The notes below the pieces were generated by a model, which saw nothing but the letters and a program-made list of their open reading frames with translations, was not told the origin of the DNA and did not search any database. Of a stretch of 51,165 nt of DNA, positions 7,601 to 40,430 are shown piece after piece. A program made the translations under genes and the position numbers. The stretch's first letter is position 1; each line of letters starts with the position of its first letter. The stretch is taken from positions 1 through 51,165 of the forward strand of contig LT649267.1 of the NCBI GenBank assembly GCA_900128395.1. The letters run 5' to 3'. This DNA comes from Stramenopiles sp. TOSAG23-2. Taxonomy: Eukaryota.

Positions 7601-10247
7601 AGAATTAAGACTTGCGAGCAATCGTTTAGTTGCTTTGCCTAAAGAAATCGGTCGCGATGTCGATGTCGAGGGTATGTATGGAAATGCAGGAGGAACCACT
7701 GGAGATGGCACCGTTGTTGTTGTCGGAAAGGAAGGAGAACAAAAAGCTACAATGCAGGACGAGCTGACAAATAAAATGGACCAAGCATTAGATGATTTGC
7801 ATGATAAAATGGAGGAAAAGAAAGCCATGTTGAAAAAAGCTGCCACCAAAAAAGCAAAAAAATTGAAAAAACAGCTAGTAAGGTACATGAAACATATTAC
7901 AAGAGAACCTCAAACAGAAAGTGAGCGAAACAGTATACGCGGTAAAGCAGTTTTACTCGGAAAGAAAATGTTTAAACAATTACAAGAAAATGACAACTTT
8001 AAGGACGCAATGGAACGTACAGCATTATTACAATCGCAAATGCAAGCAAAATATGCTGAAACCAAAATTGCTCAGATTAGAGCTCGGCGCAAGCGACATA
8101 AAATGCGAAATAAAAAATATAAATCCAAGCCAGGAATTATTAAAGGAACATTGAATCTAAAGGTCAGCAAGAAGGGATACTTAAAGGAAAACTTACAATT
8201 GTACGACACTAAAGAAGGGGTCATGCAACTATTACGAAGAGAGATAAGAAATGCAAAATACCCAAGCAGTGAAGAGAGTGAAGATGAGGAGGCAGAATGG
8301 GAAAAGAAACAAAAAGAGCTTGCAGATAGGCCATTTTCTCCAAATTCTGTTTTATCGGACGATTCTTCAGCAAACGAAGGTGGATGGAGAAGACGGAAAA
8401 AGAAGGCGAAGGAAAAAAAATTAGATACAAGAGGAGTGTTAGAATACAAGGCATCTCCACTGGCGAGCAAATTGGAAGTCTTATGGTTAAGTGGCAATGC
8501 TCTTATTGCCTTGCCGGATTCATTTGGCCATTTCAAACAGATTAAATTACTGACATTGGAATTAAACCCTATTATTTCTCCTCCTCGGACTGTAAGCAAA
8601 AATGGCGCTGATATTTTAGAATTATATTTCAAAGTGAAAAGTCGCAGGTTCCAAAAGTTGGTACATTGCGTGAATAAGCTGGGCTTAAAATTTAATTTCA
8701 AGCGATGCACGCCTGTTGCTGAAGGTTTTTGGAATGTTGAAGACCAAGGCTTTATTACCAACCAAGATTTAGAAACGTTTGAGACTCAAATCAATTCATA
8801 TTTAAATGCCGAATTGTATTTGTTTCGATTTACACCGACAAAAATGATAAAAGATATGATAGTTCTACGCGCAGATCGCGAACAAGCACATTATAAGCTC
8901 GTATTAGGAAGATTCTTAAAATTACTATGGATGGTTGAGAATGAAAAATCAAGAAATTTTCCTTTTTTAACAGAAAAAATTTTCGTGAAAAATGTTACAC
9001 GACCGTGGGGAGAGGAAGGTGAAGAGGTAGATTGCTTTGCCATAGATTTGAATTATGTTTTTGAACCAGTTGCTGAAAATGAATACAGCATCATCGATAT
9101 ATTTAAGAATAGGCCAAAAATAAGTGTTGGAGATCAATATTTTAACTATACAAGCACGATAGGCGAAATTGCCGATGCATCGGTTTCTTTTAATAGACCA
9201 TATGGAAACGTAGCTAAAGTTGACGATATAGCAGATTTCGAAGGTGAATGGCCACCAAGTAGTAGCGATGAGGAAGACGAAGCAAATGATGGGGATACTG
9301 AGACAAATGGAGAAGATGGGACGCCGAAGAAGAAAAAGAAAAAAAAGAAGAAGAAAAAGAAGAAAAAGAAACGAAGGAAACCAGATGAAAAACCGCCACC
9401 TGCTAAAAAAAAGGCATTTGTCATTCAGCAGTATTTATACAATGTGGAGGAAGCCAAGAGAAGATTGAAAGAACGCGAGGGCATTGAAAGGCGTTACCAA
9501 CTCAAACTTGATAGATTTGATGATTATGCCATTACTAAATATGGTAAAAATCGTTTAGGCAAGAAACAACGTTTAATGCGTGGTAGTGTATCTGATCAAG
9601 TGGGTGAAGAAAAACGGAAACTAGGAATCTTGGAGGAAGAAAAAGCTCAGAAAAAAACAACTTTAGACGCTATTCAAAATCGCAAAGATCTTTTTGACCA
9701 AGGGAAAGAATTTAAATTTCATAATTTTAGAGATGCCGATCAAGCAGAAACGGAAGTCTACAAAGCAACGCGAGAAGTTGAGAAAGTACAAAAACGGATA
9801 AATAAAAAGAAACTTGATGTCAAAGAAAAGAAAAAATTATATCAAAAAAAGACTGCAGAATGGAAAGCTGCAGCACGTGCTTTTTTCACTGATATGATTT
9901 TTAAACAAGTGAAACTTAAAGTTTATGAACGGCACAGGCGTCGGGCAAGGCATAGAGGAGTAAGAAGACTATGGGATGGTCGAAATGGCGCAGATTACTT
10001 GGCTTGGTTGCAAGCAAATGGACCGTTACATGATGAAAAATCATACTCAAGCCCAGAAGATTCTAGTGGCTATGATATCGGTTTGGATAGCGACGAAGAG
10101 CGAGAACGAGCAAAAGATGCTGCAGCTACTGCGGCACGTATTGCAAAAGAAAGAGAATTTGTTAGGAATCAAGTTGCTATGTTGCAAGGTGTAGAACCAG
10201 AGGAAGTTACAGAAGCAGATATTGATGAAATGATGGAAAATATGTAA
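4617..10247 (+). CDS. Large leucine-rich repeat protein (1876 aa) with several LRR blocks, degenerate WW-like inserts and a coiled-coil C-terminus
   Basis: Many LxxLxLxxNxLxxLP repeats (e.g. LRILDLHSNMLVTMP, LKHLELDSNRIRDIP); LRR caps (LFDNPMEKPP, LELNPIISPP); WW-like IWSCAVNVESGNVYYKNCINDTTTYIMP. Confidence 0.92.
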   Translation: MKQSNTMKVSPVKKRNPPYTTRNYAFKKTVNINLSPLKKSAKKFKKSVQTSPVKSNRRRFGSNNPSVSPVKRVKFNPKPGEVETKRGTLRDVLFDSNFNPRTSPVKKSSDKYDTSYLKRPQLTLSQQNILKMTGIQARGDDGTGVDYSNINNQNRFNKHYHVDADYYTMLHSLGDHRKAREALLNEEKYASNYRARSFEEALDNYTAKAQARIDKLTAKSYGPLPNRQILPMSRFTVEHVPPIPAPPPTKHVQTLFYNNAMPDPSNPNLIPVHNPENEMKHKKLTKYEEKDLQISDPERRAMRKSFVGPFKGEINATSGKIDYLTPTVGSSTLNVQIPNAWIRKLVYTNNRITTFDPIKLRIKLPYLQQLSLGQNALRELPQDIGKLASLRILDLHSNMLVTMPGTLTKLCRLEVLDVSLNELVSLPANFGGLRKLSKLNITGNKLTQLPDGIKHCLNLKDIKANGNKILVIGQFPVPKLKEDKRDYNEEDLWEELDATQFKKGKAYKNLRTHKLQRAAPSKSIITRHHQLLGGIEVSLEALLPPKRKKRDMLDFSALKQEGAPISKLMDALAMVNESIWSCAVNVESGNVYYKNCINDTTTYIMPKELDFLPNMRHILVMKFNFNGLRSIPESIGALQNLKHLELDSNRIRDIPLTLCELFSLEVLSMGNNMIERVPLQLGRLSRLKKLRLQFNAINFLPGSIGRLAGLEILWVGHNRIKTLPRTFGRLYGLKDLQLFDNPMEKPPMWVIEAGKDHVIQYCRQRLIEKEQGLPPRVELARIGVNKEVIVPVPRLEMEIAIKCENAIRSGKLFLNWLELQDFPESIYENATKISEIRFVGNCLGRMSERIELFKNLRIAYLSANKIESIPNVFGSCKHLEELYLSENLISEIPNTICRLPKLRILNFAHNRLKSVPKRLKTMRKLEILNLNSNAIKALPDGMESMKSLIRLSVGSNKIKHLPRNFGLIPQLTFINLNSNLLRRIPDSFASFQHLKELRLASNRLVALPKEIGRDVDVEGMYGNAGGTTGDGTVVVVGKEGEQKATMQDELTNKMDQALDDLHDKMEEKKAMLKKAATKKAKKLKKQLVRYMKHITREPQTESERNSIRGKAVLLGKKMFKQLQENDNFKDAMERTALLQSQMQAKYAETKIAQIRARRKRHKMRNKKYKSKPGIIKGTLNLKVSKKGYLKENLQLYDTKEGVMQLLRREIRNAKYPSSEESEDEEAEWEKKQKELADRPFSPNSVLSDDSSANEGGWRRRKKKAKEKKLDTRGVLEYKASPLASKLEVLWLSGNALIALPDSFGHFKQIKLLTLELNPIISPPRTVSKNGADILELYFKVKSRRFQKLVHCVNKLGLKFNFKRCTPVAEGFWNVEDQGFITNQDLETFETQINSYLNAELYLFRFTPTKMIKDMIVLRADREQAHYKLVLGRFLKLLWMVENEKSRNFPFLTEKIFVKNVTRPWGEEGEEVDCFAIDLNYVFEPVAENEYSIIDIFKNRPKISVGDQYFNYTSTIGEIADASVSFNRPYGNVAKVDDIADFEGEWPPSSSDEEDEANDGDTETNGEDGTPKKKKKKKKKKKKKKKRRKPDEKPPPAKKKAFVIQQYLYNVEEAKRRLKEREGIERRYQLKLDRFDDYAITKYGKNRLGKKQRLMRGSVSDQVGEEKRKLGILEEEKAQKKTTLDAIQNRKDLFDQGKEFKFHNFRDADQAETEVYKATREVEKVQKRINKKKLDVKEKKKLYQKKTAEWKAAARAFFTDMIFKQVKLKVYERHRRRARHRGVRRLWDGRNGADYLAWLQANGPLHDEKSYSSPEDSSGYDIGLDSDEERERAKDAAATAARIAKEREFVRNQVAMLQGVEPEEVTEADIDEMMENM

Positions 10248-10589
10248 AAATAATAATAAAAAAAATTTTTAGTAATAATATTTTAATAAATTTTATACTT
10301 GAATGGAAAATTAGAATACTATCCGCATATTAATTTTATATGTGCACATCATCTATTTATACTGTATGGCATACTGTATATTAATATTTAACAAAGCACA
10401 AAAACAAATTTTGCATATATATATATATATATATATACATTACATATTTTAAACTAATAATTTTTGTCATACAAGTATCGAAAATGAAAGTCTTTCGAAA
10501 AGTATAAATAACTCAAGCTGCAACAACATTAAATTTTATTTATATAACAAATACAGTAACAGTATAAATCCACTCTAGATTCAAAAATA

Positions 10590-11507
10590 ATGTCTTCCAT
10601 TACCGCAAAAAAGAAAAGAACCACCAAACCGAAGACTTTTTCCTCTCAATCAAAATGCAATTTTTATCCACTTTTAAATACAGATGGTACACCATCTTGG
10701 CCAACAAACCATTTAAAGAAATTTAATAAAGAATCAAAATCGTCCAATAATTGTAGCAAAAAAGTAGCAGTTCTAGTTCAGACTGGTGCATATTCACCTA
10801 TTCATTTGGGCCATGTTCAAGTTATGGAAAAGGCAAAAATCACGTTGGAAACTTATGGCTGGAATGTTCTTGGTGGTTGGTTGTCACCAAGTCACGATTA
10901 TTATGTTGGACCAAAAGCAAGACAATTTAAGACACCCTTTGTAAATGCAGAGCATAGAGTAAAAATGGTAGAGTTAGCTACAAGTGAATATGATTGGTTA
11001 GCAGTAGGTACATGGGAAGCTCGGCGTGAATCCAGTTGGCCGGATTTTCCAATAGTATGTCGTAATTTATCAAGTCATTTAAACACATTATTAAGTGATT
11101 TATCATTACCAAATGTGACAGTATTTTATGTATGTGGTTCAGATCATGCATTAAAATGTGGCTTAAAAGGCTGGAAAAACAATGAATTAGGTTTAGTTGT
11201 TGTAGCAAGAAATGGTAAATCAATTAAAAATAAAACAGATCCAGAGAAATATGTATACTGGTGTGAAAGTGATGGCCAATTATCAAGTGCATCATCCACT
11301 AAATTACGACATGCCATTCAAAAAAATAATATAAAAGATTTATCGTTATTAACGAACCCTTCTGTAATTGATTATATGATTGAACATAATTTATATGGTG
11401 CATCATCCATGAGAACAATTGCAACAACAACATCAACGATGATGACGACGAGAACAACAACAACGGATGAGCCATCAACAACAACAACAACTGTTTCCGA
11501 CGTGTAA
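10590..11507 (+). CDS. NMNAT: Nicotinamide/nicotinate mononucleotide adenylyltransferase-like protein (cytidylyltransferase superfamily)
   Basis: GAYSPIHLGH (GxxxPxHxGH), GGWLSPSHDYY, HRVKMVELA, VGTWEA, YVCGSDH and SASSTKLR (ISST-like), in eukaryotic NMNAT order. Confidence 0.88.
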   Translation: MSSITAKKKRTTKPKTFSSQSKCNFYPLLNTDGTPSWPTNHLKKFNKESKSSNNCSKKVAVLVQTGAYSPIHLGHVQVMEKAKITLETYGWNVLGGWLSPSHDYYVGPKARQFKTPFVNAEHRVKMVELATSEYDWLAVGTWEARRESSWPDFPIVCRNLSSHLNTLLSDLSLPNVTVFYVCGSDHALKCGLKGWKNNELGLVVVARNGKSIKNKTDPEKYVYWCESDGQLSSASSTKLRHAIQKNNIKDLSLLTNPSVIDYMIEHNLYGASSMRTIATTTSTMMTTRTTTTDEPSTTTTTVSDV

Positions 11508-11626
11508 ATAAAAAATAAAGACTTTTTTTTTTATAAAAATATAATAAATATTTTTTTCCTTTTTTCAATTTTTTAAGGATACCTTAGGCCGGCTATCCAG
11601 GCTATCAATTTCACTAATTTACTTGG

Positions 11627-11635
11627 TACCAGGTA
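11627..11635. promoter_or_regulatory. Recurrent intergenic palindrome TACCWGGTA, copy 3 of 4
   Basis: TACCAGGTA ~260 bp upstream of the ARH-NRK gene. Function inferred. Confidence 0.35.
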
Positions 11636-11896
11636 TATTATACTTGGAAGGGGAATTAGAATAAGATATAAATACACCCATCGATGTTGTTGGACAGACG
11701 GACGACAGACAGTCTTATATATCGATTTATATCTATATATAAAACTAAATAAGAAATGAAATACACACAGATAGAAAGTTGTAAGTTATATAAATATATA
11801 TATATACTATATTCATTATCATTTAATTGACGTACAAGTATATGATCATCATCATTATAAACTGTAATAAGCCCACGGAAAAAATTAATTTAAATC

Positions 11897-14419
11897 ATGT
11901 ATGTTTGGATCAATGTACCAGAACCAATACCAACTATATTAAATGAGTGTAAATATATGGTCAATCCAACCGTACCTGCTGATAATATTATTGATAACAA
12001 TGTTGAAAAGGACAACGATACAATAATTAACGTTATTTTGAACACATCGTCGTCTTCTATAAATGTAATTTCACAAACATATATTGACAATGCCAAAAAT
12101 ATTTACAAATATGATTTTTCTTCAAAATCAATGGAATCTATTATATTAGATGTTTCACAGATATCAAATACAACTATTACAAATCAACGTGTTAATTTTT
12201 TAGCCAACTTACCTTCTTTGGATTTATTTCAAGGTAGTATTATAGGTGTTGCCGTTGGAGATACAATAGGTCTTGGTGTTGAAGGTTTACCCAGAGATCA
12301 ATGTTTTGATTACGTTTCAAATTTGAGAAATAATTTAAAGAGCATGACATATCCATGGAAAAAAGTACTTGATTATTTTAATAGTAGAGGCAAAGAGGAA
12401 TCGGCAAAAACAATTGAGGAGATTATTGGCAGAAGGTTTACTGTGGGTCAAGTTTCAGATGATACACAATGTAGCCTTGCCTTAATTGAAAGTATTGTTA
12501 ATGCAAATGGTTTTTCCGCACAAGCATTTTCGGATTCATTAGTTAATTTACATATTAATCCAGGCATCGTTGGTCAAGGTGGAACATCAAAAGCAACATT
12601 AGATGAACTTGCGACAAAAAAATTATCTTGGTTAAATGCATGTTTCGCTAGTGGTAATTATGAAGAAATGTATGAAAAAAAAAGTTCAAATGGATCGGTA
12701 ATGCGAGTTGGTGCATTGGGTCTTTGGGGTTGGGCGGATCCTACCTCTGTAACCAATTTAGAAAATGCTGTATTGAGCAGCCATGTAACACATTCACATC
12801 CAGATTGTAAAATTGGCGCAACCATGTTGGTTATCGCAGTTGCCAGTGCAGTACATGCAAGAGCCGTAGGAAAAGATGATCCAGCGGAATTTATCATTAA
12901 AAATCTTGAGATGTTTGACCAGCAAATAGGGCAGGTGTTACGTATGATGAATGATTCAAAAGATTGGGAAGCAGCAGCAAATGTTTTACATCAAGAATTG
13001 CCATTGCCAGATAACCAAAGAAGCGATTTTTACAAAAAGAAAGAAATATGCCCGTACCCACAGCATACTGCAGCTTGGGCAATATATTCTTTTTTATCAA
13101 ATACAAATGATTTTTGGGAAGCAATTTTTTGTTCAATGCAAGTTGGTGGAGATACTGATACGTGCGCTGCTTGTTGTGGTGCAATAGCAGGCGCTTACAG
13201 CGGTTTGGATCTAATTATTAAAGGAAGAGAAGACTCGAAATACGTGTTAAATGCTTTACATGATGAGACACAAATGAAGAAAATTAGTTTTAGTGCATTA
13301 AAATCAGTTGGTGAACAATTACACAATACATGCACACGCCTAACCTTTAACGGTGCTTCTGTTCCATCAAAGCAGGGAGAAAGTTCAAACAAAGAAATTG
13401 CATTGTACATACATAATTCTGGATTGATATCCAATGAAGTTGTAAATTCAAATAAATATCGAATTATAAAAGATGCAAATGACTTTTCAAATTATGAAGA
13501 TGAATGTAAAAGTACTGGAAAATCACCTGTTTTAATCATCGAAAGTGTCAGCGTTTCAAACAATATACTAGGCCCTAATGATATACAAGAATCAATATTA
13601 TTTATACGGAAATGTGTAGATTGGGCAACAGTAATTGTATATGGCAGGGCTACCATCATGAATAATTTAAGTCACCATTCATTTTATCATGATAATTGTC
13701 GCTGTGTTGCATTAACATTACACGATGCATTGGAAGCAGCAGAAAGATTAAGTATGCCATCGCTAAATAGTGTAAACAACACGCAAACTAATAGTATCGG
13801 TGTGCAAGTCATTGGAATAAGTGGTTGTAGCCGTTCTGGAAAATCTACACTGACAAAGAACTTAATTGAAGTATATAAAAATGGTAATAATATTTGGACA
13901 GTAATGGGTGATACATATTTTCGTATGAATTGGTTGAGCGGTGGATATAGAATGTTTCACACTAAATATGATTACAAAAAATATACACTTGGGAAATATA
14001 GGCATGGTCCATGGGATAGCCCAGGTGCGTATGATCATGTAAAACTTTTAAATCAAACAAGAATAATCATAAAAGAAGCTGAAGCAGTATATCGAAATAC
14101 AGGCATAGAACAATATGTTATTATTGAAGGATTTACATTATTTGTCGATCCATTGATATATAATTTGTTTGATACACATCTGTATATTGAATTACAATTT
14201 GCTGACGCACGAAAACGTAGAATGGCAACTACACCATTGCCACCAGTATATTATGATACATTTTTATGGCCAAGACAATTAAAATACCATGACAATACAT
14301 TGCATAAATCAAATTACGACGAACTAATATATTTGGATGGCGCAGATCCAGAAAAAGTTCTTTTAAAAAAAGCAGTTGATGCAATTGGTCAAGGGCAGAA
14401 CAACGGTAGCCGTTTGTGA
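11897..14419 (+). CDS. Fusion protein (840 aa): ADP-ribosylglycohydrolase (ARH/DraG) + unknown alpha/beta domain + nicotinamide riboside kinase-like P-loop domain
   Basis: ARH motifs GVAVGDTIG, SDDTQ, SNGSVMR, SHVTHSHP, GGDTDT..A..GAIAGA (~12221-13215). NRK motifs VIGISGCSRSGKSTL, GDTYF, WDSPGA, IIEGFTLF, RKRR, YYDTFLWP, IYLDG (~13802-14400). Confidence 0.88.
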   Translation: MYVWINVPEPIPTILNECKYMVNPTVPADNIIDNNVEKDNDTIINVILNTSSSSINVISQTYIDNAKNIYKYDFSSKSMESIILDVSQISNTTITNQRVNFLANLPSLDLFQGSIIGVAVGDTIGLGVEGLPRDQCFDYVSNLRNNLKSMTYPWKKVLDYFNSRGKEESAKTIEEIIGRRFTVGQVSDDTQCSLALIESIVNANGFSAQAFSDSLVNLHINPGIVGQGGTSKATLDELATKKLSWLNACFASGNYEEMYEKKSSNGSVMRVGALGLWGWADPTSVTNLENAVLSSHVTHSHPDCKIGATMLVIAVASAVHARAVGKDDPAEFIIKNLEMFDQQIGQVLRMMNDSKDWEAAANVLHQELPLPDNQRSDFYKKKEICPYPQHTAAWAIYSFLSNTNDFWEAIFCSMQVGGDTDTCAACCGAIAGAYSGLDLIIKGREDSKYVLNALHDETQMKKISFSALKSVGEQLHNTCTRLTFNGASVPSKQGESSNKEIALYIHNSGLISNEVVNSNKYRIIKDANDFSNYEDECKSTGKSPVLIIESVSVSNNILGPNDIQESILFIRKCVDWATVIVYGRATIMNNLSHHSFYHDNCRCVALTLHDALEAAERLSMPSLNSVNNTQTNSIGVQVIGISGCSRSGKSTLTKNLIEVYKNGNNIWTVMGDTYFRMNWLSGGYRMFHTKYDYKKYTLGKYRHGPWDSPGAYDHVKLLNQTRIIIKEAEAVYRNTGIEQYVIIEGFTLFVDPLIYNLFDTHLYIELQFADARKRRMATTPLPPVYYDTFLWPRQLKYHDNTLHKSNYDELIYLDGADPEKVLLKKAVDAIGQGQNNGSRL

Positions 14420-15263
14420 TAGATTTGTTTTGGTTCGTGCGCAAAAAAATATGAATTTTAACAAAAAAAAAATATTTTAATATATTTATATAAAAAAACA
14501 TTTTTATGTACGTAATCAATATATAAGATTTGTTTTTTTAGTTTTTTTTTACACCTAACGACACACCTTTCACATATTGAAATGCTTTACTTGGTATACA
14601 TTGTACATATTTCATTTTAAAAACGGTTTGGATAATACACCCCCTGTTACGACTGGTTCGTCATCCATGCAGGCTTATTGTCTCTCCTCCCTTGTTGTTG
14701 TTGTTGTGAATTGCCCCAACTTTGTTGTTGTGGTGGATTGTTACCCCATGATGGTTGACCATTGAGACGAACTAATATATTTGGATGGCGCAGATCCAGA
14801 AAAAGTTCTTTTAAAAAAAGCAGTTGATGCAATTGGTCAAGGGCAGAACAACGGTAGCCGTTTGTGATAGATTTGTTTTGGTTCGTGCGCAAAAAAATAT
14901 GAATTTTAACAAAAAAAAAATATTTTAATATATTTATATAAAAAAACATTTTTATGTACGTAATCAATATATAAGATTTGTTTTTTTAGTTTTTTTTTAC
15001 ACCTAACGACACACCTTTCACATATTGAAATGCTTTACTTGGTATACATTGTACATATTTCATTTTAAAAACGGTTTGGATAATACACCCCCTGTTACGA
15101 CTGGTTCGTCATCCATGCAGGCTTATTGTCTCTCCTCCCTTGTTGTTGTTGTGAATTGCCCCAACTTCGTTGTTGTGGTGGATTGCCCCAACTTTGTTGT
15201 TGTTGTGAATTGCCCCAACTTTGTTGTTGTGGTGGATTGTTACCCCATGATGGTTGACCATTG
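14318..15263. repeat. Tandem duplication of the convergent 3' ends of the ARH-NRK and SPT6 genes (14318-14764 and 14766-15263)
   Basis: Near-identical copies with starts 448 bp apart. They differ in the number of SWGN-coding units (2 vs 4) and in the length of a Q run. Possibly two haplotypes assembled in tandem. Confidence 0.9.
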
Positions 15264-18200
15264 TTACTTTGCTGTTGAAAGCCACCACCACCACCACCAC
15301 CACCACCGTCATTTGTAGATTGATTAAGGTAACGATCATTCCAATCATTTCCACCTTGTGGTGCTCCACCATAGGCATTTCCACCACCATAATTTCCCTG
15401 GTTTCCACCACCATAATTTCCCTGGTTTCCACCACCATAATTTCCCTGGTTTCCACCACCATAATTTCCCTGGTTTCCACCACCATAATTTCCCTGGTTT
15501 CCACTACCATAATTTCCCTGGTTTCCACCGCCGGTATTGTAACCACCAGCAAAAATTTGCTGCTGCTGCTGCTTCATTTTCGCTAACCTTCTGTTTTCCA
15601 GTTTGTCGGCGTGCGCTTTTTTCAAAGCCTCGGTCGCCGCTTTCTTCTTTTTCTCATAATCACCTCTATCCCTTTCCAACGTGCCTTTTTGCATTGCTCT
15701 TTTAAAATAACCGATCATATTTTTCACTTCTGGATATTCTTTTCCAAATAATTTATAACCATCAGGTGTAATACGAAATGGAAGATTTTTGCTGAAACTT
15801 TGCGTATGAATAATTTCAAAGAAACCAGGATGCTTGTTCATTGCGCGTATAATATAATGTTTCCTTTTTGGATTTTCTTTATGACACTCTCGTAAATAAG
15901 ACAAAGCTGAATGCCTATCTCCTTCTTTGTACTTTTCATGTCTTTGTAGCATATTTACATTATCAGATACAGGAACATAGTACCTATCTAAAAGTTCATC
16001 GATTTCACTATATTCCTCATCCCATCCAACCACGACTAGAATCTTTTCTCCAGTGTTAGACGTTTTTTGCTCTATCTCATTATGAGCATAAATATTTTCA
16101 GCAACTTTCCACGTTAATGTTAAAAATCGTTTACCTTTACTACTTGGTCTTAAAATCTTCTCACCGACGGGCTTCTCTTCCAAATATTTTTCAGCTTCAT
16201 CACCTCCTTCAAGATTTTTAAATGCCTCATGTGCAATTTGGCGGCGGATATATCGAGTCTTCCCTTTCTTGCTTTGTGCCTCTTTTAGCTTATCCCTTTC
16301 CTCTTTCAATTCTGTTGGCATCGGTGGAGCTAACAGTTCAATGTTCGTGCCATAGTCTACAATCCCAGCCCAATTCATTTTGATCGTTTCAAACGTATAT
16401 AAAGGATACAATAATGGAGGTTGAAAAGATCCTTTTGCTACAAATTCTCCAAAACCAAAGCGATCATACTTCAACTCCTTTACAATCACTTCAATAATTT
16501 CATCTTCTCTAACTTTATCGTTTAAACCATTTACCCATCCAGATATGCCACATTCTAACCGAACTTTAACTTTATCACCATAACTATCGCCACTACTTTC
16601 AACGCTTACTACTTTTGCATGTAGCTCTTTACCTTGCCTTAATGTTTTTGCCGTCATGCCAGTGTATAGATAAAAATTTTCAAGTGGACTTAATTGCTTA
16701 AATTTTATCTGTCGATTTTCAGGCACACGCCTTTTTAATTCGTCCAAAATATACTCGACGGATTTCTCTGGACAGTAATCCAGTCCTTTGTCAATTTGGA
16801 ATTTATCGGCAGTTTGTTTAGCATTGACTCTCATCAAATTACCCTGATGACGTTTCAACGTTTCGTTATCTTGCCTATCTTGAATCACACCATCAGCATT
16901 TAAAGCTTTGTTAGGATCCAATAACATTGAACGAACAAGGTGAGTCAATTCCACTACACTCATATCTTTTAAATCACCACTTTTTTCACAAGCGGTTGCA
17001 ATAATTAATTTCGTATCATTGTAATCTGCTGGATGAATTCTCGTTACATCTAATGGCTCGGGATATTTCTTTTCGGAATCTCCACCGTAATCAGCTTGGC
17101 GTTCTTGCGTTTGGCTATACGGATCGATGGAACCAATTCGCAAGTAACCAGCAGCGTTGGTATATACATTTGTTTTCAATAGACCACCATTTTCTTCCAA
17201 TAGAAGAGATCTACTTCTTAAATAAATATTAGCATTAAATGCATCTTCTGCCTCGTCGTCATCCTGATATGCTTGATTGCTATTAGCATTAGCATATGTT
17301 CCTGAAGTAGCTTTGGCTAATCTAGGAAGAATTTTTTTCAATGCGATTGCTTTCCGTTCACCAAGACCAGGAACAAATCTCAATGTTTCCCCCCAATGAG
17401 GAGAATCGATTGAACGGTTTAAATCTACTCCAGTAATCGCCGTTGCTTTCAAAAACTCACGCTCTAGGTGAGATACTAAAATTTCTTTAGATACTTCCGA
17501 TTGAAAAGGATGGAGCTGTAACATCAACACCGAGCCACCAGGAGTCTCCGAACAGTTGACGGAGTGCGACCCTCTCTTATTTGCTTGTACTACCCATGGT
17601 TCTTCCCATAATGCAGCATAAAATGTAAGAGGATCGATTGTTAGCCTACCGATTGCAATAGCTGCTATTGCGTTGATGTGGAATTCTTTGATATCATCAC
17701 CGATTGTCTCGCGTTTTGCATACAGCAAAGCAGCCTCATTACTAACTGTCATAACTTTGAAAAAATAATTGTAATCGTATTGAGATGCATTAGGATCTCT
17801 TTCATCGGGTGGGCCAGGTACATTCGCTAATTGGCACATTTTTTGCTCTTGTGCCGCTGTTGATCGTATNTGAGGAGATGCATTAGGATCTCTTTCATCG
17901 GGTGGGCCAGGTACATTCGCTAATTGGCACATTTTTTGCTCTTGTGCCGCTGTTGCATCTGAGACCATTTCAAACATCCTTCGACTATCAAATCCCCCAC
18001 TTGAGCTAACCAAGCATATCCTTGGCAAATGAATGCCAATAAATTCTGCAATCTGGTCTTTCATGTCTTCCCTCGTCATATTTGTCAATTTGGGTAAGAA
18101 CACATGGTCAATGCAATCGCCAAACTCATTCAATGCAACCGCCACATTGTTTTCCCCAGAATCAGAGATATAAAATACAGCACGCCGACCATTACTTTTG

Positions 18201-21000
18201 CTCTCTGCTAGTGGCCTATCATCATATTCACCACCTTGATCATCCATATTGTAACGGGGTACCCTAGCTTTCCGATTTGTATTTGCATGTTCATCTAAGT
18301 TGTGCTGATGAGGTTGTAGCAATGGTTTAGTCATAATTCTATAACCTAGTTCCTTTGCTGCCGTTTTTGCGACAAATTCAATAGCAGCCTTATATGTCTC
18401 GCGTTGCAGTTCTCTAAGAGCCAATTGGATATTTTTTGTAAATGCGACCTTAATTGCAAGGCATCGTGTTCTATTAACAAGGTCATTAATTTGGGTACCG
18501 TTGTTTTTCCATGCATCTGTAATTTGTTCCCCAGCCAACTCCAAATCTGCAAATGTGTCTGTCACCATATAGTCGCAAAGTTGACAATATACTTCTTCTT
18601 TCTCCTCCTCGTTAACGGTGACCAATTTTTTTATGAATCCTTCTCTTGAAGCTCGCTCAATAAGTAGATATGCTTCATAACCACATAATGCTTTAACATC
18701 CGATGGAAAATCATACACCCCCCCAGTTGAATTACTCGTAAAATCACTAAGTTTTTTGCCTTGCACGTATTGAATCGGAATATAATCATGCCCTTTATCG
18801 ATTTCATTAAACATCGGCCAGCCCTTTTTCGTTGGTTCAGTAGATAATACAGCATGTTCTTCCACAAACTTTTTAACGAAAGATCGAAATTGCGGCTCGT
18901 TTTGTATTTCATAGGCTAGACTTTTTTGCAACGCTTTCCAAAGCTCTGCTTCCGCTTTTTCCCCTTTAAAACGACCATTTCCCCAAACACGATGAGCTAC
19001 TTGCATATCAGAATTGGAACTTAATGGCACGTTCACCCTATGCTCTACATTGACATTTTCACCAAACTGAGTCGCTGTTAAACCACCAATTTCTCTTAAT
19101 AGAGGCAACATTCGTGCCTTTAATGCTTTAGCATAATCGTTTTTTCTTCCAGCACCACGTTTCTTTTTACTTTCAGTCGTCATCTCTGGAAACTGGATAC
19201 TAATCCAATTTTGAATATTTCTCAATTTTTCCTCATTAAAATCTTTCACTTCCTCGTACTTCTTGTCATCACATTTCTTCAACTCCGCTATGTATTTGTT
19301 CAAGATCTCCTCATTTTCTTTGCGTTGCAACTTTATACTTGCTTCAGAATTTAATTTCATCTGCTTTTCTCTCTCTTCATCTTCTGTTAAATCTATTGCC
19401 ATGGAATTTGCATCTGTAGTAGTAGTAGTTGTTGTTGTTGTTGTTGTAGTAGTAGTAGTAGTAAACGCGAACGCAATCGTGTCCAAGTAGTATCCAAATC
19501 ATATACTCGCCAAAGTCTTTCTTCATCAAGGTACATATGATTTTTGTATAAAAAATGATCACGTCGATAATTCCAAATAAATGGAATTTCATATTGATAT
19601 TCTTTGTCGTATACAAAGCTTAAAACTTTTTGTATACAGCTGATAGTTACACGCTTGGTTTCAGTATTGTCTGCAAGTTCCCCCAGTGAACCTTCTTCTT
19701 TCATTTTGTAAAATATCCAATTTGCCTCCAATGAACGCTCAGTTTTAACTTCATCAACATCATCCCAATCAATATTCGTTCTTCCCTTTCTCAAATTTCT
19801 TATGTAAAGTCTTTCTGGCTTATCCGCTCGTCGTATTCTATCATCAAATTCTGTTACAAAATGTTTCGCACGTTCACTTGGCTCATATTGTTCTCTTAGC
19901 AAGGCTAATTGTTTTGAAATATCATCACGGCCTGTATCCAAATTAAAATCAGTTTGATCTTCATCTATGATTTGTTCCTGATCTACTTTTGGATCGTATA
20001 AACCTTTTGCAGCTTTTATTGCACGTAACCATGGCTCTTCATCCATAATAAAAAGTTCATGCATTAATTTTAAATTCTTCCATTCATCGTCAGTATACTT
20101 GTTAGTTGCATCTTGCTCATCATCTTCTTCACTACTAGAACCACCAGAACTGCTTTCATCATCAGATGCTATAAAATCTTGCATTTCTTCATCAACATTG
20201 CTGCGTTTCTTTTTCTTTTTCTTTTTCTTCTTAGTTTCTTCTTGCACTACGGGTGGTAGGTCCTCACCTCGTTCTGCAGCTTCATTTTCTTTTACCAAAG
20301 CAAGGTCATCTTCATCTGCTTCATATTCCCTTCTTCTTTTCTTTAAACGCTTTAATTGTGGTTCATCATCATCTGAATCAGAATCATCACTATCGTCATC
20401 CGAATCTGAAGCAGAGTCATCTTCCCGTTGTTTTCTTTTTTTTGAAGTTTTATTCCTATTTTCTGACACTATGAAACCTTTCATTTCTTTATAAATCCCA
20501 TCCTTTCCTTTTGCTTCGTCTTCTTCCTCTTCACTATCCCCGTCGTTATCTTCATCTTCATCTGAAGCTTCATCATCAAATAGACTTGATACTTTGGCGC
20601 GTGGTTTAGATTTCGCAACTTCTCCTTCATCATCATCATCATCAGAGTCGGAAGCAGAGTCACCAACATCGTCATGCACATTTTTTTCACTATTGTTATT
20701 ATTATTATTATCACTATCATTATTATTATTATTATTGTTATTATTATTGTTATTATTATTATTACTATCGCCGTCATCATCATCATCATCATCTGATGCA
20801 GAGTCATCAATATCCATGGCGGTTGATTCACTGACTTTTTTCGTATCATCTTGAGCTACTCCCAAATTCCCCCCCCCATCACTTCCCGTAGTCGTCTTTA
20901 CCTCCCCTCCTTCGACAGTATTTGTTGTTTGATCCTTCTCTTGATCATCATCCTTTTCAACGACAGCAGCAGCAGTAGTTTCAGTCGTTGGATTATCCAT
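15095..21000 (-). CDS. SPT6: Transcription elongation factor / histone chaperone SPT6, split into two frames at a microsatellite (~19414-19466)
   Basis: Acidic N-terminus (SLFDDEASDED, MKGFIV), D.PERL, YEIPFIWNYRRDH, YqgF-like region, HhH (LRFVPGLGERKA), PLDVTRIHP, S1 (VRLECGISGWV), tandem SH2 (ILRPSSKG..LTLTWKV), G/N/Q-rich tail. Joins ORFs 19393-21000 and 15095-19486. Confidence 0.93.
15378..15532 (-). repeat. 24-nt coding minisatellite, (GGGNQGNY) x6, in the SPT6 tail
   Basis: TTTCCACCACCATAATTTCCCTGG units on the + strand. Confidence 0.92.
17782..17955. other. 81-bp duplication flanking a single N inside SPT6 (scaffold-join artefact)
   Basis: 17782-17862 equals 17875-17955; the spacer ATCGTATnTGAG copies sequence just left of the first copy. 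Confidence 0.85.
19414..19466 (-). repeat. (CTA)n(CAA)n(CTA)n microsatellite at the SPT6 frame break; candidate 53-nt GT-AG intron
   Basis: Minus strand reads C|GTTTACTACTA...CTACTACAG|AT; removing it joins the two SPT6 frames. Confidence 0.6.
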
Positions 21001-33400: not shown

Positions 33401-36400
33401 GAAATAAACATATAGATATATAAGAGACACACACGAAATAAAAGGTGGTAGTAAATGAAAATGTGAGAGTATGATGTCATCAAGTGACATTACAACCATT
33501 GTTCATATGTATATGTAAGTATTATATATACATAAGTAGAGTGAAAAATATAAATAAGTTGTTTCTACATACCATCCAAACTAATTCTGCACATTCTTCC
33601 CAGTGAAATACTTGTTCCTTGATAAATTGACGTGCAGCTGGGTTATTAATGCCTTCACCTTCAGTCTCTAACCATGGATATCGCATTTTTGCAACATTCG
33701 TAATTGCATTCCCCATGAAATTTTCCAAACTTAATCTTCGTTCATTTGCCGGTTTACTTTTGGCAAATATCAAATCGATATCAGTCTGTTTGATTTTCTT
33801 ACCATCCACAACACTAGGCAGTTGTTTTACCCACTTTGAAAATTTTGAGCCATCTAATTCCTTTGCAGTTGGCTTTAAATTAATCAAGTATTTATACGTT
33901 TTCACTGCTGCAAATTTACTTGGAACTTTTTCATACCACATCTCCTTCGTTTGATGTAAATCTTTCGGTTCTGTACCCAATAAAGGAATAACTTCACTCC
34001 ACATGATTTTATAACCGAAAAATTCTTGGAATTTTTTCGATTCCTCTTCTCGTAATTCCTCCTTTTCAGCTTCTGATGGACCAGTTATCTCGTCTTTTTC
34101 TTCGCCACGTTCACCAATGACTAGATATATGCGTTCATTTGGGCTTGACCAGTCGTTGTAAGCTTTTCTTAATGTTATGGTAGTTTCGTCAAAAGCATCT
34201 GTTTCATCTTTACTTATCCAATATAAATTCTGATCACCACCTTTATCCTTCCCGATTCGGATACGATGGAATCGTTGTAAAAATTTACCGGCAAGCGGTT
34301 CTGATGTTTTAATTACTTTCGAACCACCCTCTACTATGACACTTCCAGGAAGTCTTTGCATGTCGTCTTCAGGTGGTGTCTTTGGACGAGCTCTGCGTTT
34401 CTTTTTTTTATCATCTTTTGCTTTTGCTGCTTCTTCCTTTTCCTTTAATTTCTTTTTACGTTCACGCTCTTCCGCCTTTTTCTTTGCAGCACCGGAAGCA
34501 TTCATTCGCATGAAACCAGGAACTTTCTTCTTTTTCTTGCCTTTCTTTTTGCCCTTTTTCTTACCTTTCTTTTTTCCTTTCTTTTTACCTTTTGAAGTAT
34601 CAGAAGTTTCAGATGCAGAAGTCTCATCAGCTGTAGTTTCCTCTCCGGTGGATGATACGGCTGTTGATGACGCATCGCCTTTTGTAGTTCCACCTTCTGT
34701 TTCATCTCCTTCGTCAATACTACCACTTTTCTTCTTCTTCTTTTTCTTTGAAGCTTTTTTCTTGCCTTTCTTACCTTTCGACCGTCCTTTCAAACGTTCC
34801 CTTCGCTTTCTTTCATTTTTCATAGCTGCAACAGATTTTCTTTTCTTACCACGTTTACCACCTTTTCTTGCTTTTCCTGTACCACTTGTAGTACCACCAT
34901 CTGTATCGGTGTACAAACGATCACTACCACCACGTCTTTTACGGCCTCCACGCCTTCCAGATCGTCTATATAACACAGATCCGGATACGGTTCCATCTTC
35001 GTCTGTATAATACCGACGACCACTTCGACCATCTTCACTGTCGGACCAATCATCTTCATCTCCTTCAGAAATATCGTCCAAGACAGCGGAACTGCCAACT
35101 TTACCTAATACGCGTAAGCTATGAGGTATGCGACGACGTGATCTTCTTCGAGCTTTAACAGGGCGAAGCTGTAAAGATGGCAATGATTCTGCAACTGTTC
35201 TTCGTCGCTCTTCCGCTTTAGTAAATGGGCGACCGCGCCACATAAATTTAAAATCTTCAGGTAACTCTACATGGCCACCCAGTTGTTTCACAATCTCTTC
35301 TCTAGCTTGTGATAACGTCATACTGTCATCAATACGTATAGAACCTACAGGTAGTGGCCTATTATCTGCATCTTCAATGCCCATGCCTTCCGCCTTTTCA
35401 TTTTCACCCATATCTAAACCTTCTAAAGAGACCAACATATGAACCATGCGACGGAAAAGAACTGTTTCTAAACGAACAGTACTTAAGTCGAGTCCTTTTG
35501 ACGTAGAATTTAAAATATCAGTTTTTGAGCCAGTAAATAAGGAGCTGTCATCTTCATCCAATGGTACGAGCCGAAGCATGGCACTGATTCTTTCTGCCAG
35601 CGCAGCACGTTCCTCGAATGACATTGACGTTTCAATCCGATCGTCACCTTCAGATTCTAATAAACGTTTTGCATCATCCGCAGTTATCAATTTGGTCAAT
35701 GTATGCGTTGTGCTGAATTTGCTTTCCGCGATTCGTTTCTTTTCCTCTTCTGAAACAACATTATCCATATCCTCTTCAACTGTCATTGCTTTAAACAGCA
35801 ATGCATCATCTTGGATTTCAGCAACCAATGCTAAACGTATTCCACTAACTCGAACTTCTGTGTGCAATATTGTTTTGTCAATTTTAAAAATTTGACTGTT
35901 TGTACAGTAAAAGATGCGATCAATAACTCGACCCATAGCAGGTGCTAATCGCATTGTTTTTGCCGCTGCCATTCCTGATATCGCTGACATTTCTGACGAT
36001 AATAATCGAATATTAAATTGACCTTTTTGTGGGCAAGTGACTTTTAAATTAACAGCAGTTCCACCGGCTTCGACACTCACCGTCAATGCTACTGTACTCA
36101 TGTTGATTTCTTCAGTATCATTGGAATCACCCTTGCTTTCATTTGGTATGTGTGGAACGGTTAATTTATTCCTACGTAATGAGGTTGGAACTGCACGGTC
36201 TAATCCAAGTTGCCCACTATCGGCATTTCCAAGATACCACAATCTACATAATACCGCTTTTACCAATTCTTCATGGATGCTGACATCACCAGCGGAGTCT
36301 AGTAAATGTTCTTGATGAGCAAACAATAAAAGTAATTCACGACGACGTACTTGTAAAACATGATGTTTTTTCTTCTTATGATGCCAAGCAACGATTAAAA

Positions 36401-39400
36401 GCCCACCATCTTCGTCCCGTAACCTTCGTCTCCGAGGAGTTCCACTACCATCTGTTATTTCAACACGCATCATCATCGTTTCCGATTTTGACAAGCCATT
36501 GTCCTTATCTTCTTTCTTCATATTTTTTTTTCGTACCCTTCTTGCCCCTGTAAATATATCTCGTGGAAATGCAAAATGTAAATGTAATTTCTGATCAGTC
36601 GAGTCATTTATTGCAACTCCATTCTCATCAACGTTGCTAGTAGGATCTCCGTGAGTAGCGCGTAAAGTTTGAAGCAAAACTTGCATCCTTTGCTCGCAAC
36701 CCTCTTTTGGTAAAGATGCAATATCTTCCAATGACATATCCAATAATTTATGACAATATGTAGGATGCAATTGGGTTTGTGCACTGCCAGCACCACCAGG
36801 TTCATAGGCATCAACATTCAACCATCCATCTGAATGCCTTCTTATAAATGTTAGTACAGTATATGTTGTTGGATTCCCGACTTTTTCTTCGTCATCATTT
36901 TTAACACGATAACCGATGCGTAATAACGTGGTTCCTTCCACTCCCTTCTGCGTACGGCGATATTTTGCTGGCGGCGACGTTTTCTGTTTTAACTCAGCAG
37001 TTTTTTCTTCCACATCGTCATCATGGCCTTGGCCTTTTTCACCATCTGATAAAATACCACGAAATGTCAATGATTGACGCAACTTTACAAGTTCTTCTTT
37101 CAGGGCTAACATTCCAGCAGTTGTTCCTTGAGAACGTGGGCGAGACAAAGTTTTACGTTTCTCTCTGGCTTTTCTAACTCCTGAATCTTCCATATCTTGC
37201 TCCGCATCAGCAGTTGCATGCTCTTCCGTTTGATCCCCCCAGAGTGGATCATCTTCTACTTCCATCATTCTTCTGCTGCCATCCCCAGAACCTGGGGCAC
37301 CATATCGAGATTTTGCCCTTGCTGCAGATTCAAAGACTCGTTTGACATATGCACATATAGCCGCTGCACCTTGACTTTGCCTCATTAGAAGATCCTCGTT
37401 AAATAGTTTATCATCAATGTAACTTATTAACATTTCTTCTTTTTCTGGATGTAAAGGCACCCCTTCACGAAATTGCAATAAACAACGTAATAAATGTTCG
37501 CGATCAGCAGCCATTCTTTGCAACGATGGCCATTCTAATTCAACTTTAGATTTCGGGACAATTCTTTTACCCTCCTCGCCTTGATTTCTTTTGCGACTGC
37601 GACGATTGGAATTTGGATACAAAAGTATAAATATTGCTTCTAATGCCAGCTTAATACCTGCTGGTGGAACCGTATACGCTGCCATACTGCTTAAATCTGT
37701 TCGACTAATACCAGTCTTGCGTTTCACCGCTGCGTAATCAGATGGATGCAACCCTTTTTCTTTTCGTTTATTTTGATTTCGTGACGCAGCCCATGCTGCA
37801 TTTGATTCCATTAAATCTTCTTGCGACATCATATACGGTGCACCATCCATTCGCATTCGATTTTCTCTTTCTTGTTGTTGTTGATAGGTTTGATCAAGTG
37901 GATTACCTTGCATATCTACGCCAAGCCCATGTTTCAAACGTTTCTCTGCATCCATTAATGCAAGGGACGAAGCGTCTTGAATGCCAGGTGTATTGCCAAG
38001 CAATTTCATTGATGCTTTCTTCTCGTTTTCACGCACTACCGGTGGACTCGGCCATGCAATAGCTTCATCGGCTAAATTTTGCGAGTTCCAATCAGGAAGC
38101 ATCGAAGATGTTTTAATTAAGCCATCTTGTAAAGTCTTGAAAGTATTTTGACCATCTTCTTTCCTAACCGCATCGGCTGCATGAAAAAGTCGAACACTAT
38201 CCAATGCTTTTCCACCACTAGCAGCTGCTACAATATGCATAGGCATTGCTGATAATGTAGGGACAATGACTGGTATTTCAGGCGGGGACGTTGGCATATT
38301 AGACAACCCTCCAGGCAAGACGAAGGGATTCTTTATTAAGGAAAACCCCAATGCACTATTTAATTGTGTGATACCATCTAAAAAATCAATATCAGATGCT
38401 ATTTTAACTAAGTAATTGCGTTCATTCCAAATGAACGCTGGATAATTATCTGTTAAAATGTCCAAATCAGTTGCATCAGTAGCAGCTGTGTTTGGCCTAC
38501 TATTATTTTTTATACGTGCATTTTCTGCACTCATCATTTGCCATTTCACAACAGCTTCAACGGTATTGACGGTTGCCATTCTCAATTGGTCTAATACTTC
38601 CAATAAGCCAGGCTCCGTTGTTTGTTGTTCTTGTTCATCTAATATTGATTTCCGCAAATTTCCATGGGAAAATTTTGATTCGTTATTGCCATATTGATTG
38701 TTTTCTAATAATTGTGGATTAAATGATCCTAATGCTTTTTTATCACCGGACATCAATGCTGCTGATAATGTTGCCGCACGGCCTACTAATGATTCCCGCA
38801 CAATAATTGTTTTATATAATTCTATTTCTAAACGAGCGATTTTATTTGCTCGAATACTTGCATCGTCAACATTATTCCATCCTATGACAGAAGATTCTTT
38901 CTCAGCAGCAGCAGCACGTGCTGCACTAGCTTGCAATGCAGCCGCATGGGCTTGTGACATTAATGCAGCTTCTTTATGATGTTTTTTTGTTAATTTTGAT
39001 CCATTAAATCTTTTTGGAAATGCACTATTTTTAACCATTCTCATATAAGGAGATTCTTTAAATGCTTGCGTGCGTGTATATGTACAATTAGGGTCAACCG
39101 TGGCATCGTATCGAGGAATCAATGTCCCATACCCGCCACCTCTACTATTTGGCAATGGTAAACTAGATGAATTATTCCATCCTTGCTCTAATTTTACTTT
39201 TTTCTTTAAATGTTCATTTAATTTTTTCCTACGTTTTCTTCTTTGCTGCCTTGTATACATTTTCCCTTCATGAGCACCAAAATCTCGTTCAAATGTTTTA
39301 TTATTCATTGCATTCACCTTGGAACGTGCGTTTGCATAGCGTTGGATTAACATTGCTGCTTCTAAATCTGTTTTCTTTTCTATCCAATTGGGATCGGTCC

Positions 39401-40430
39401 AATCATACAATCGTTGTGATCGCTCCATGATTCGTTCTTGAAATTTACTTTTATGTCCAGCAAGTTGTTCACGTGCTTCCGTCACCAATCGACTTCTACG
39501 CTCTGCTTCCGGGGTTAATTGTACAGGTGTATTTGCACCTGCTCCTCTGATGGTTTTATTTATTGGAGACCATGGGGCATCATCATGTAAAATAGCTTTT
39601 CTCATTTTCTTAACTTCACGTGATAATACTTTTGTTTTTGCACGTTCAAATTCTAACGCAAATGGATTGCCTATTGACGATGAGTTGTAGCTACTTTTAC
39701 TGTTGGAGTTGTGATTAACCGTGTAATTTACATATTCATTATTATTGTATGGAGTAATATTGTTACCTTCACGACTTGGTACTTGGTCAGAACTTGGTGC
39801 AGATCTTGCAACACGTCGTATTTGGTTTTGTTTCATAAATGTATTTGGAGAGACTCCACGTTCATTTCCTCCTCCTCCTATTTGTGGAAAATATCCTGCA
39901 TCTTTATCATCATTATTATATATATTTATACCTTCGTTATTTCTATTGTCATTGTTTACACTGTTATCATTTATTTCAATATTATCAATTGCATTCTCGC
40001 TATCATGTATACTATTTAATGGTGTGTGAATTTTGCTATGCCCACTGTGCGATGATCGGGATGGAATCAGTGGTGGTTTGTGGTTGTTATTATTATTATT
40101 GTAACGAGAATTTTTGTTGTTACTTGTATTATTATCATTATCATTATTATTATTATTGTTATATTCAGAATAGTTGGATTTGTTTCCTTCCATATCACTG
40201 GTACTAGTTTCAAAGTCTTCAAAATCATCATAACTATATCCTTGTGTATCACTAGTTTCACCTAATATATCTACAGATGATTTATCTTGATAGTCTCTTG
40301 ACCCAGTAGTTGGTTTACTAAATAAACCATTATTTGGATTATTTGTATCAGATAATAAATCTATATTATCTATTGCCTCATCATCTTCATCCATGGTATG
40401 ACCTAATGTTTCTAAAATGGAAGACGCCAT
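30414..40430 (-). CDS. Giant ~3056-aa protein with dynein MTBD-like, ubiquitin-like, p25-alpha/TPPP, IQ, WW and TPR modules; exons 33573-40430, 32990-33169, 32576-32740, 30414-32381
   Basis: Three phase-0 introns (GTATGT..CAG, GTAAGT..TAG, GTCGGT..CAG) join the 2302-aa and 630-aa ORFs in frame. Motifs: DLSSMAAYTVPP..ALEAIFILL..W..AAAICAYV (MTBD-like); LDGSKFSK..TDIDLIFAK (p25-alpha); IQNMWR (IQ); FYYLNSLTGAVTWSKP (WW). Confidence 0.78.

Follow-up and report, generated by a model that had tools for sequence, protein, structure and literature searches.

We analyzed a 51,165-nucleotide stretch of DNA (the window; contig LT649267.1 of assembly GCA_900128395.1, Stramenopiles sp. TOSAG23-2), in which two adjacent genes on the forward strand carry the enzymes of interest. 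The upstream open reading frame (ORF), ORF A (10590-11507, +), encodes a 305-aa adenylyltransferase of the nicotinamide mononucleotide adenylyltransferase (NMNAT) family. It is followed by an AT-rich spacer of 389 bp (11508-11896, no strand) and by ORF B (11897-14419, +), an 840-aa protein composed of an N-terminal region, an ADP-ribosylglycohydrolase (ARH) domain, a middle alpha/beta domain and a kinase resembling nicotinamide riboside kinase (NRK). A first-pass annotation of this DNA had reported two co-oriented genes 389 bp apart with NMNAT, ARH and NRK motifs, and we confirmed both the coordinates and the domains. Both reading frames run without interruption, identical 305-aa and 840-aa proteins are encoded on many further short contigs, and homologues of ORF A and ORF B can be aligned from the first residues onward. 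These data therefore fit two complete, intronless genes. Rfam searches found no family at gathering score in the spacer (11508-11896) and no match across 10000-15200.

We observed a full-length domain match of ORF B to the ARH/DraG family PF03747 (ADP_ribosyl_GH; 150.7 bits, cutoff 26.2, profile positions 1-283 of 287), located at aa 113-439 (12233-13213, +). The characteristic stretches GVAVGD (117-122), E129, SDDTQ (187-191), NGS (265-267), VTHSH (297-301) and GGDTDT (417-422) are all retained. When the family profile from alignment A1 was compared with the PDB, ARH3 (ADPRHL2) was the best match (1.6e-18) and aligned across the whole ARH domain, with MJ1187 (1.1e-17), Tri1-type proteins (5.2e-16) and DraG (4.9e-13) following too closely to single out one subfamily. 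ORF B falls short of the NCBIfam equivalog cutoffs for DraG and Tri1 by a wide margin. E129, S187-D188-D189-T190 and D419-T420-D421-T422 line up with the YEA, TDDT and GGDTDT stretches of ARH3. G417-T422 is invariant in all six A1 sequences, and the E and SDDT stretches are conserved in all five that are full-length (the truncated P0005 lies outside them). We take these acidic and threonine residues, whose roles are known from ARH3 structures, to be the binuclear metal site. Overall, aa 113-439 of ORF B is predicted to be an intact, ARH3-like, metal-dependent ADP-ribosylhydrolase.

ORF B differs from ARH3 in the other domains that it adds. According to the accessible part of one survey, extra domains of eukaryotic ARH3-like proteins include zf-RanBP, zf-UBP and WD40, with MacroD-like domains in bacteria, and a kinase is absent from the extra domains given in that part (PMC4245714). 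The region upstream of the ARH domain (aa 1-105; 11897-12211, +) had no Pfam match and shares a short motif, W-I...P-I..IL-E-C-G/K-W/Y, with its homologues.

The C-terminal domain of ORF B (aa 633-830; 13793-14386, +) is an NRK1-like P-loop nucleoside kinase by prediction. Searched against the PDB as a single sequence, the C-terminus of ORF B was closest to human NRK1 (2qg6, E = 1.7e-8). The kinase family profile A2 matched NRK1 at 6e-22 and the best uridine kinase at 9.4e-10, and the A1 family profile reached NRK1 at 5.4e-16. We obtained similar results from structure. For aa 460-840, an AlphaFold model (pLDDT 69) returned human NRK1 in each of rows 1-7 of a Foldseek search (template modelling (TM) score on target 0.78-0.82), followed by UCK2 at ~0.6. 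In a VIA-align comparison with 48,161 chains, NRK1 was again at the top (Z 19.8, root-mean-square deviation 3.2, 181 residues aligned), a uridine kinase came next (Z 15.6) and the bacterial NadR (8x7f) was ranked 33rd (Z 11.8).

We compared 11 positions of NRK1 with the ORF B kinase. The NRK1 structure paper describes Asp36 and Glu98 as essential, Asp56 and Arg129 as ribose ligands, Tyr55, Phe39 and Tyr134 as contacts to the base, and Arg132 as a ligand of the gamma-phosphate (PMC1994991). Nine of the 11 positions are retained in ORF B, both essential carboxylates included: Lys16 (K649), Asp36 (D672), Phe39 (F675), Asp56 (D707), Glu98 (E744), Arg129 (R775) and Pro136 (P782) are kept, as are Thr12 by a conservative exchange (S645) and Tyr55 by another aromatic residue (W706). 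Most of these fall within the retained stretch GISGCSRSGKS (640-650) and at D672, F675, W706-D707, E744 and R775. The two positions not kept are Arg132 (T778) and Tyr134 (P780), in a loop whose alignment is uncertain owing to a 3-residue length difference. D672 is invariant among the aligned fusion proteins described below, and the residue equivalent to Glu98 is Asp in one of their clades (clade iii). A stretch common to NRK1, Y(Y/F)D...WP..L.Y, is also found in the ORF B kinase. The altered lid loop, RRMATTP, recurs in stand-alone or tandem NRK-like proteins (P0104, P0169, P0180 and P0183). On the basis of this residue mapping, the kinase is NRK-like with an altered lid loop, and its predicted specificity for nicotinamide riboside (NR) is likely. 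One of these relatives, P0104 (376 aa), carries two NRK-like kinase domains in tandem with the ORF B-type RRMAT loop.

Between the ARH domain and the kinase lies a middle domain (aa ~499-620; 13391-13756, +), for which predicted models show five strand-helix units in a flavodoxin-like order. Pfam gave no family at E <= 5 for this domain apart from noise. The best Foldseek match had an E value of 6.5e-3, and the structures found were CheY-like receivers and type II dehydroquinases (TM 0.4-0.48). An ESM Atlas search with the middle domain returned no usable matches, and one with the whole of ORF B returned a 0.76 lead to dephospho-CoA kinases and nothing else. We also compared the middle domain with the N-terminal alpha/beta domain of P0183 and detected no relation; the kinase alone could be aligned between the two proteins. 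The alignment of the middle domain (A4) was anchored by full-length ORF B. The models suggest a generic flavodoxin-like or receiver-like arrangement, which is no basis for assigning a family.

The combination of ARH domain and kinase recurs in other protists. In an index of 5.8 billion proteins, six of 8000 scored candidates matched ORF B at E <= 0.001, and five of these (P0001-P0005) contain both an ARH domain and the kinase. P0005 is truncated at the N-terminus, the C-terminus of P0003 is disrupted, and the sixth protein (P0006) is a weak match to the ARH domain only. When 1.84 billion representatives were searched exhaustively, 1852 matched at E <= 0.001, six of them at E <= 1e-30. Among the best 150 of the 1852, nine of which were checked with Pfam, P0004 and P0063 cover both domains, and the others are fragments, ARH-only proteins (~330 aa) or kinase-only proteins. 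P0063 (1130 aa) can be aligned over aa 111-819.

Pairwise identity divides the fusion proteins into three deep clades, with 32-35% identity between clades. Clade i holds ORF B and P0001, clade ii holds P0002, P0003 and P0005, and clade iii holds P0004 and P0063. A fragment, P0065, showed ~40% identity, and another, P0073, on a 31-kb contig, is 78% identical to ORF B. Clade ii fusion proteins are encoded on contigs of 5.2 kb (P0002), 8.8 kb (P0003), 9.8 kb (P0038) and 5.9 kb (P0040). Another relative (L005; 32% identity) is represented by a genomic locus that is GC-rich with interrupted frames and, at 3.3 kb, is too short to include a neighbouring gene. The predicted ARH-middle-NRK architecture is thus conserved in three deep clades of distant protists. 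Because the fusion has been kept in all three, the link between the ARH domain and the NRK-like kinase is, at the level of predicted domains, real in an evolutionary sense. A literature search that covered mostly openly accessible articles turned up no description of an ARH-NRK protein, and no paper that names both ADP-ribosylglycohydrolase and nicotinamide riboside kinase. The architecture looks undescribed, a new arrangement of known enzymes.

We next turn to ORF A, which matched PF01467 (CTP_transf_like) at 34.5 bits (cutoff 21) over aa 65-240. Among solved NMNATs, it was closest to 9rpk (E = 5.4e-17, aa 47-270), and human NMNAT1 (1kqn) was found at 2.6e-10. All nine PDB sequence matches at E <= 0.01 are adenylyltransferases of nicotinamide mononucleotide (NMN) or nicotinate mononucleotide (NaMN), that is, NMNAT or NadD. 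Hallmarks of NMNATs are an N-terminal ATP-binding motif, GxxxPxH/TxGH, and a C-terminal SxTxxR motif. Both are present in ORF A, as TGAYSPIHLGH (aa 65-75) and SSTKLR (aa 235-240). The protein also carries TDGTPSWP (aa 31-38), SPSHDYYVGPKA (aa 99-110) and VCGSDH (aa 181-186), and its C-terminal tail is Thr-rich. These data suggest that ORF A is an NMNAT-type enzyme, which is predicted to convert NMN or NaMN and ATP to NAD+ or nicotinate adenine dinucleotide (NaAD). The domain assignments made in the first pass accordingly held up under profile searches, with PF01467 and PF03747 above their cutoffs and the kinase assigned to NRK1 by PDB profile and fold.

The closest relatives of ORF A form a distinct subfamily (13 matches) with invariant TGA.SP.H.GH, SP, K109, WE, CG.DH and SST..R. 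T65, G66, P70, H72, H75, S235, S236, T237 and R240 are invariant across 11 subfamily sequences, and the N-terminal DGT.SWP motif is conserved. Putative members are spread over marine protists and some bacteria. Two members are joined to phosphatase domains: P0215 (526 aa, from a 22-member cluster) to His_Phos_1 and P0212 (780 aa) to Metallophos, a metallophosphoesterase domain. In P0213, whose source is labelled as the dinoflagellate Prorocentrum cordatum, the NMNAT-like domain is duplicated in tandem. A search of prokaryote genome contigs with the subfamily gave three loci. One (L007, 5917-6675), on a contig labelled as a marine proteobacterial metagenome-assembled genome, encodes a member with 39% identity. 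Its gene belongs to a tight, single-strand row that also includes genes for an aminotransferase and a CpXC protein, as well as three ORFs without a family match. Four ORFs at this locus are blank in Pfam; two of these and the 526-aa ORF in fifth position are blank in NCBIfam. No NAD gene was recognised in this operon-like row with either database.

To what extent the NMNAT gene and the fusion gene belong together depends on whether their adjacency recurs. A second assembly (L003) carries the same NMNAT/ARH-NRK arrangement. Its DNA is 99.4% identical to the window, hence from the same species, so it does not constitute independent support. The sole closer relative that we observed is P0211 (on a 19.2-kb contig), whose NMNAT part is 79-80% identical to ORF A and continues for ~430 aa. 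A tblastn search matched this continuation to no part of the 51-kb window, and this one unverified gene model hints that the downstream neighbour differs. In protein searches for longer and near relatives, we found no real fusion of an NMNAT to an ARH domain or an NRK; these searches are word-indexed, and relatives can be missed. A complex prediction for ORF A with ORF B aa 460-840 (score 0.00, mark 0.34, no controls) spoke neither for nor against binding.

One candidate for a three-domain protein was rejected. P0009, a 943-aa model in a eukaryote protein set, derives from the same locus and has NMNAT aa 1-228 spliced onto ORF B; it is without the NMNAT SSTxxR motif and without the kinase C-terminus. 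In the NMNAT cluster, 14 of the 15 listed members have the NMNAT protein (302-305 aa in 13 of them, a fragment of 154 aa in one) on contigs of 0.8-2.5 kb; a further one is on a 10-kb contig. Similarly, 13 of the 15 members listed for the ORF B cluster have the 840-aa protein, with the longest contigs at 2.7-13.7 kb, mostly 2.7-4.3 kb. We rejected P0009 as a merged gene model because the cluster members are separate and lie mostly on transcript-length contigs, and because its motifs are cut. It is probably an annotation error, one that could mislead surveys of domain architecture.

We also assessed the genes surrounding the pair. The window is AT-rich (GC 0.29-0.41), with long unbroken ORFs tightly packed. 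The neighbours encode a 1876-aa leucine-rich repeat protein, Spt6, a FYVE protein, a RING/LON-domain protein, a SWIB/R3H protein, a WW protein, a cytosolic carboxypeptidase, an EamA transporter, a 2Fe-2S ferredoxin and eIF2-gamma. Their predicted domains mark them as eukaryotic nuclear genes of an ordinary kind with no connection to NAD, which agrees with the first-pass view that the other neighbours are functionally unrelated. Near-identical DNA occurs in marine and seawater sequencing runs, 18 of which share parts of the stretch. Among these 18, 11 are RNA-labelled records from nine studies, several of them poly(A)-selected (matched by shared words only). From the marine matches, we treated the source as an AT-rich, intron-poor marine protist.

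Several further observations concern the sequence beside and beyond the pair. A 300-nt direct repeat (14313-14612 and 14761-15060; 99% identical, spacing 448 nt) copies the final 107 nt of ORF B with its 3' flank and sits where the ends of ORF B and Spt6 converge. The repeat yields paired small ORFs on the minus strand (14229-14519 and 14647-14967). In a second isolate (L004), ~1.1 kb at the repeat region has no match to the window. The region 14313-15060 is either variable or an assembly problem. The adjoining Spt6 homologue (15095-21000, minus) is broken into overlapping ORFs, 15095-19486 and 19393-21000, and the first of these contains an X (undetermined base or bases) with a duplicated peptide stretch on its flanks, an appearance that suggests an artefact of an assembly gap. 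Elsewhere, a 2302-aa unbroken ORF (33522-40430, minus) matched no Pfam family at E <= 0.001.

Taken together, we lean towards the following explanation and hold it to be somewhat more probable than its competitors combined: the locus contains two separate nuclear genes, an NMNAT-family ORF A and an ORF B that joins ARH3-like, flavodoxin-like and NRK1-like domains, and their adjacency is more likely incidental or lineage-specific than selected. The ARH domain would free ADP-ribose from an acceptor (a protein side chain, poly(ADP-ribose), O-acetyl-ADP-ribose or similar). The kinase would make NMN from nicotinamide riboside, or NaMN from nicotinate riboside, and ORF A would adenylylate these to NAD+ or NaAD. 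The fusion may tie the reversal of ADP-ribosylation to NAD+ salvage through common expression, localisation, regulation or allostery, possibly by way of the middle domain. Because ADP-ribose is not an NRK substrate, coupling by expression, location or allostery would be more likely than substrate channelling. The NMNAT gene just upstream would complete the route NR -> NMN -> NAD+ on paper.

Several points weigh against this explanation. The product of the ARH domain does not feed the kinase, so a reason for the fusion can be proposed but not derived. ORF A stays under the NCBIfam equivalog cutoff of TIGR00482 (66.5 vs 112.45 bits) and far under those of the remaining NadD models, all of which were made for bacteria and archaea. 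The kinase region matched uridine kinase models alone in NCBIfam, far under cutoff (TIGR00235, 1.9e-6), and with the equivalents of Arg132 and Tyr134 lost, its nucleoside preference may differ from that of NRK1. The case for a chance adjacency is itself weakly based, on the merged model P0211 and on word-indexed searches, which can miss relatives, having turned up no fusions. Co-orientation, a short spacer and two adjoining consecutive pathway steps also make a striking coincidence.

These last features are what the first-pass annotation had in mind when it read the locus as a linked module. In such a reading, the NMNAT and ARH-NRK genes are a selected, co-regulated pair, a split eukaryotic counterpart of NadR together with an ADP-ribose eraser. 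We consider this possible and rather doubtful. The kinase and the adenylyltransferase are consecutive steps of the NR route encoded 389 bp apart in one orientation, and the arrangement is present in a second assembly, which is nevertheless conspecific. The ARH-NRK fusion would itself show that selection in these lineages couples the removal of ADP-ribose to NAD salvage, and the fusion of NMNAT-like relatives to phosphatase domains (P0215, P0212) indicates that the subfamily joins multi-activity proteins. Set against this, the P0211 model continues into sequence without a match in the window, and the only apparent NMNAT fusion with ARH or NRK domains was the merged P0009. For one specified gene to lie next to another, we estimate a chance of ~2/N, or 1e-4 to 2e-4 for 10-15 thousand genes; across ~250,000 scanned windows, a few pathway-like adjacencies would still be met by chance. 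An NMNAT gene beside an ARH-NRK gene is more likely incidental or lineage-specific than a selected pair. The module interpretation is partly supported: conservation of the ARH-NRK fusion in three deep clades bears it out, and NMNAT membership does not follow, with the adjacency seen in one species only. The relatives found share the ARH-NRK fusion and offer no real three-domain fusion, and the viral contigs searched showed neither. The observation behind the interpretation is confirmed.

The main rival concerns the kinase and is kept alive by the two non-conserved NRK1 positions. The domain could act on another riboside (of the uridine or cytidine type, or another ribosyl compound), or it could regulate the ARH enzyme by binding a nucleotide or NR, and the link to NAD salvage would then be apparent only. 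The sub-threshold P-loop families that alone appear in Pfam over this region and the uridine kinase models of NCBIfam are consistent with such a role, as is the RRMATTP loop, which marks a protist subfamily with stand-alone and tandem forms of putative activity. We nevertheless judge it unlikely. NRK1 clearly outranks the uridine kinases by profile and by Z score, and it fills rows 1-7 of the Foldseek search. The two essential carboxylates and the two ribose ligands are retained, together with two of the three base-contact aromatics, and the Y(Y/F)D...WP..L.Y stretch of NRK1 is present. A role in countering toxins had also been proposed in the first pass and finds no specific support here; we regard it as very improbable. 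In this defence or counter-defence reading, the locus would protect the cell, much as phage NAD-reconstitution pathways do, from toxins that deplete NAD+ or transfer ADP-ribose and that come from viruses, prey or competitors. The reading has the general logic that ADP-ribose is removed and NAD+ rebuilt, and ARH-only relatives occur on two viral contigs (L001 and L002, 24-27% identity). NMNAT and kinase queries had no match at these two loci, however, and the viral contigs searched showed no fusion, no adjacency and no NRK-like relative, and one distant NMNAT match only. Domain searches of the neighbours, from which PADLOC models were left out, found no ADP-ribosyltransferase, NADase, TIR, SIR2 or mobile-element gene.

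Compared with known systems, the locus combines familiar chemistries in an unfamiliar layout. The same two chemistries are predicted here as in the eukaryotic Nrk1 to NMNAT (Nma1/2) route, with NRK1 as the best match of the kinase and NMNAT motifs in ORF A. The kinase differs from human NRK1 in being the C-terminal domain of an 840-aa ARH-bearing protein, in addition to its two lost positions. To our knowledge, neighbouring NRK and NMNAT genes are not a described feature of yeast or human genes. Similar to bacterial NadR, NR kinase and NMN adenylyltransferase are linked, here as neighbouring genes. Unlike in NadR, the two are separate proteins, parted by a stop codon and the 389-bp spacer, and the fusion partner of the kinase is an ARH domain and not an NMNAT.

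NadM-Nudix, a bacterial bifunctional NMNAT/ADP-ribose pyrophosphatase, offers a precedent for one protein that joins NAD+ synthesis with the handling of ADP-ribose, a product of NAD+ consumption. That protein pairs an NMNAT with a Nudix domain, whereas ORF B pairs an NRK-like kinase with an ARH domain, and apart from the NMNAT fold the sequences are unrelated. The phage NAD+ reconstitution pathways NARP1 and NARP2 consist of an ADP-ribose pyrophosphokinase with a nicotinamide ADPR-transferase, or of Nampt with an NMNAT. They resemble the locus as clustered genes that rebuild NAD+, and they differ from it in that the window, which is part of a eukaryotic chromosome, contains no Pfam family like phosphoribosyl pyrophosphate synthetase or Nampt. 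A bolder version of the idea would make ARH-NRK an undescribed eukaryotic class of NAD+-homeostasis proteins, in which one polypeptide would sense or reverse ADP-ribosylation while driving the phosphorylation of NR, with the middle domain as the coupling switch and the NMNAT recruited as a neighbour in this lineage, so that a two-gene, three-activity unit would be the analogue of NadR and the phage clusters. We think this improbable.

Of the features of this locus, the one that merits follow-up is the ARH-(alpha/beta)-NRK architecture, because it is conserved; the NMNAT neighbour on its own may be a coincidence. The compact, intronless gene pair is handy test material for the conversion of NR to NAD+. 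In marine metatranscriptomes, the abundance of the proteins is high enough to bear on how forms of vitamin B3 are used by marine protists. In animals and yeast, the link between ADP-ribosylation reversal and NAD+ salvage is discussed at the level of metabolite pools only. Should both halves of the fusion prove active, it would be natural "Rosetta-stone" evidence that some eukaryotes couple the removal of ADP-ribose marks to NR-based NAD+ salvage.

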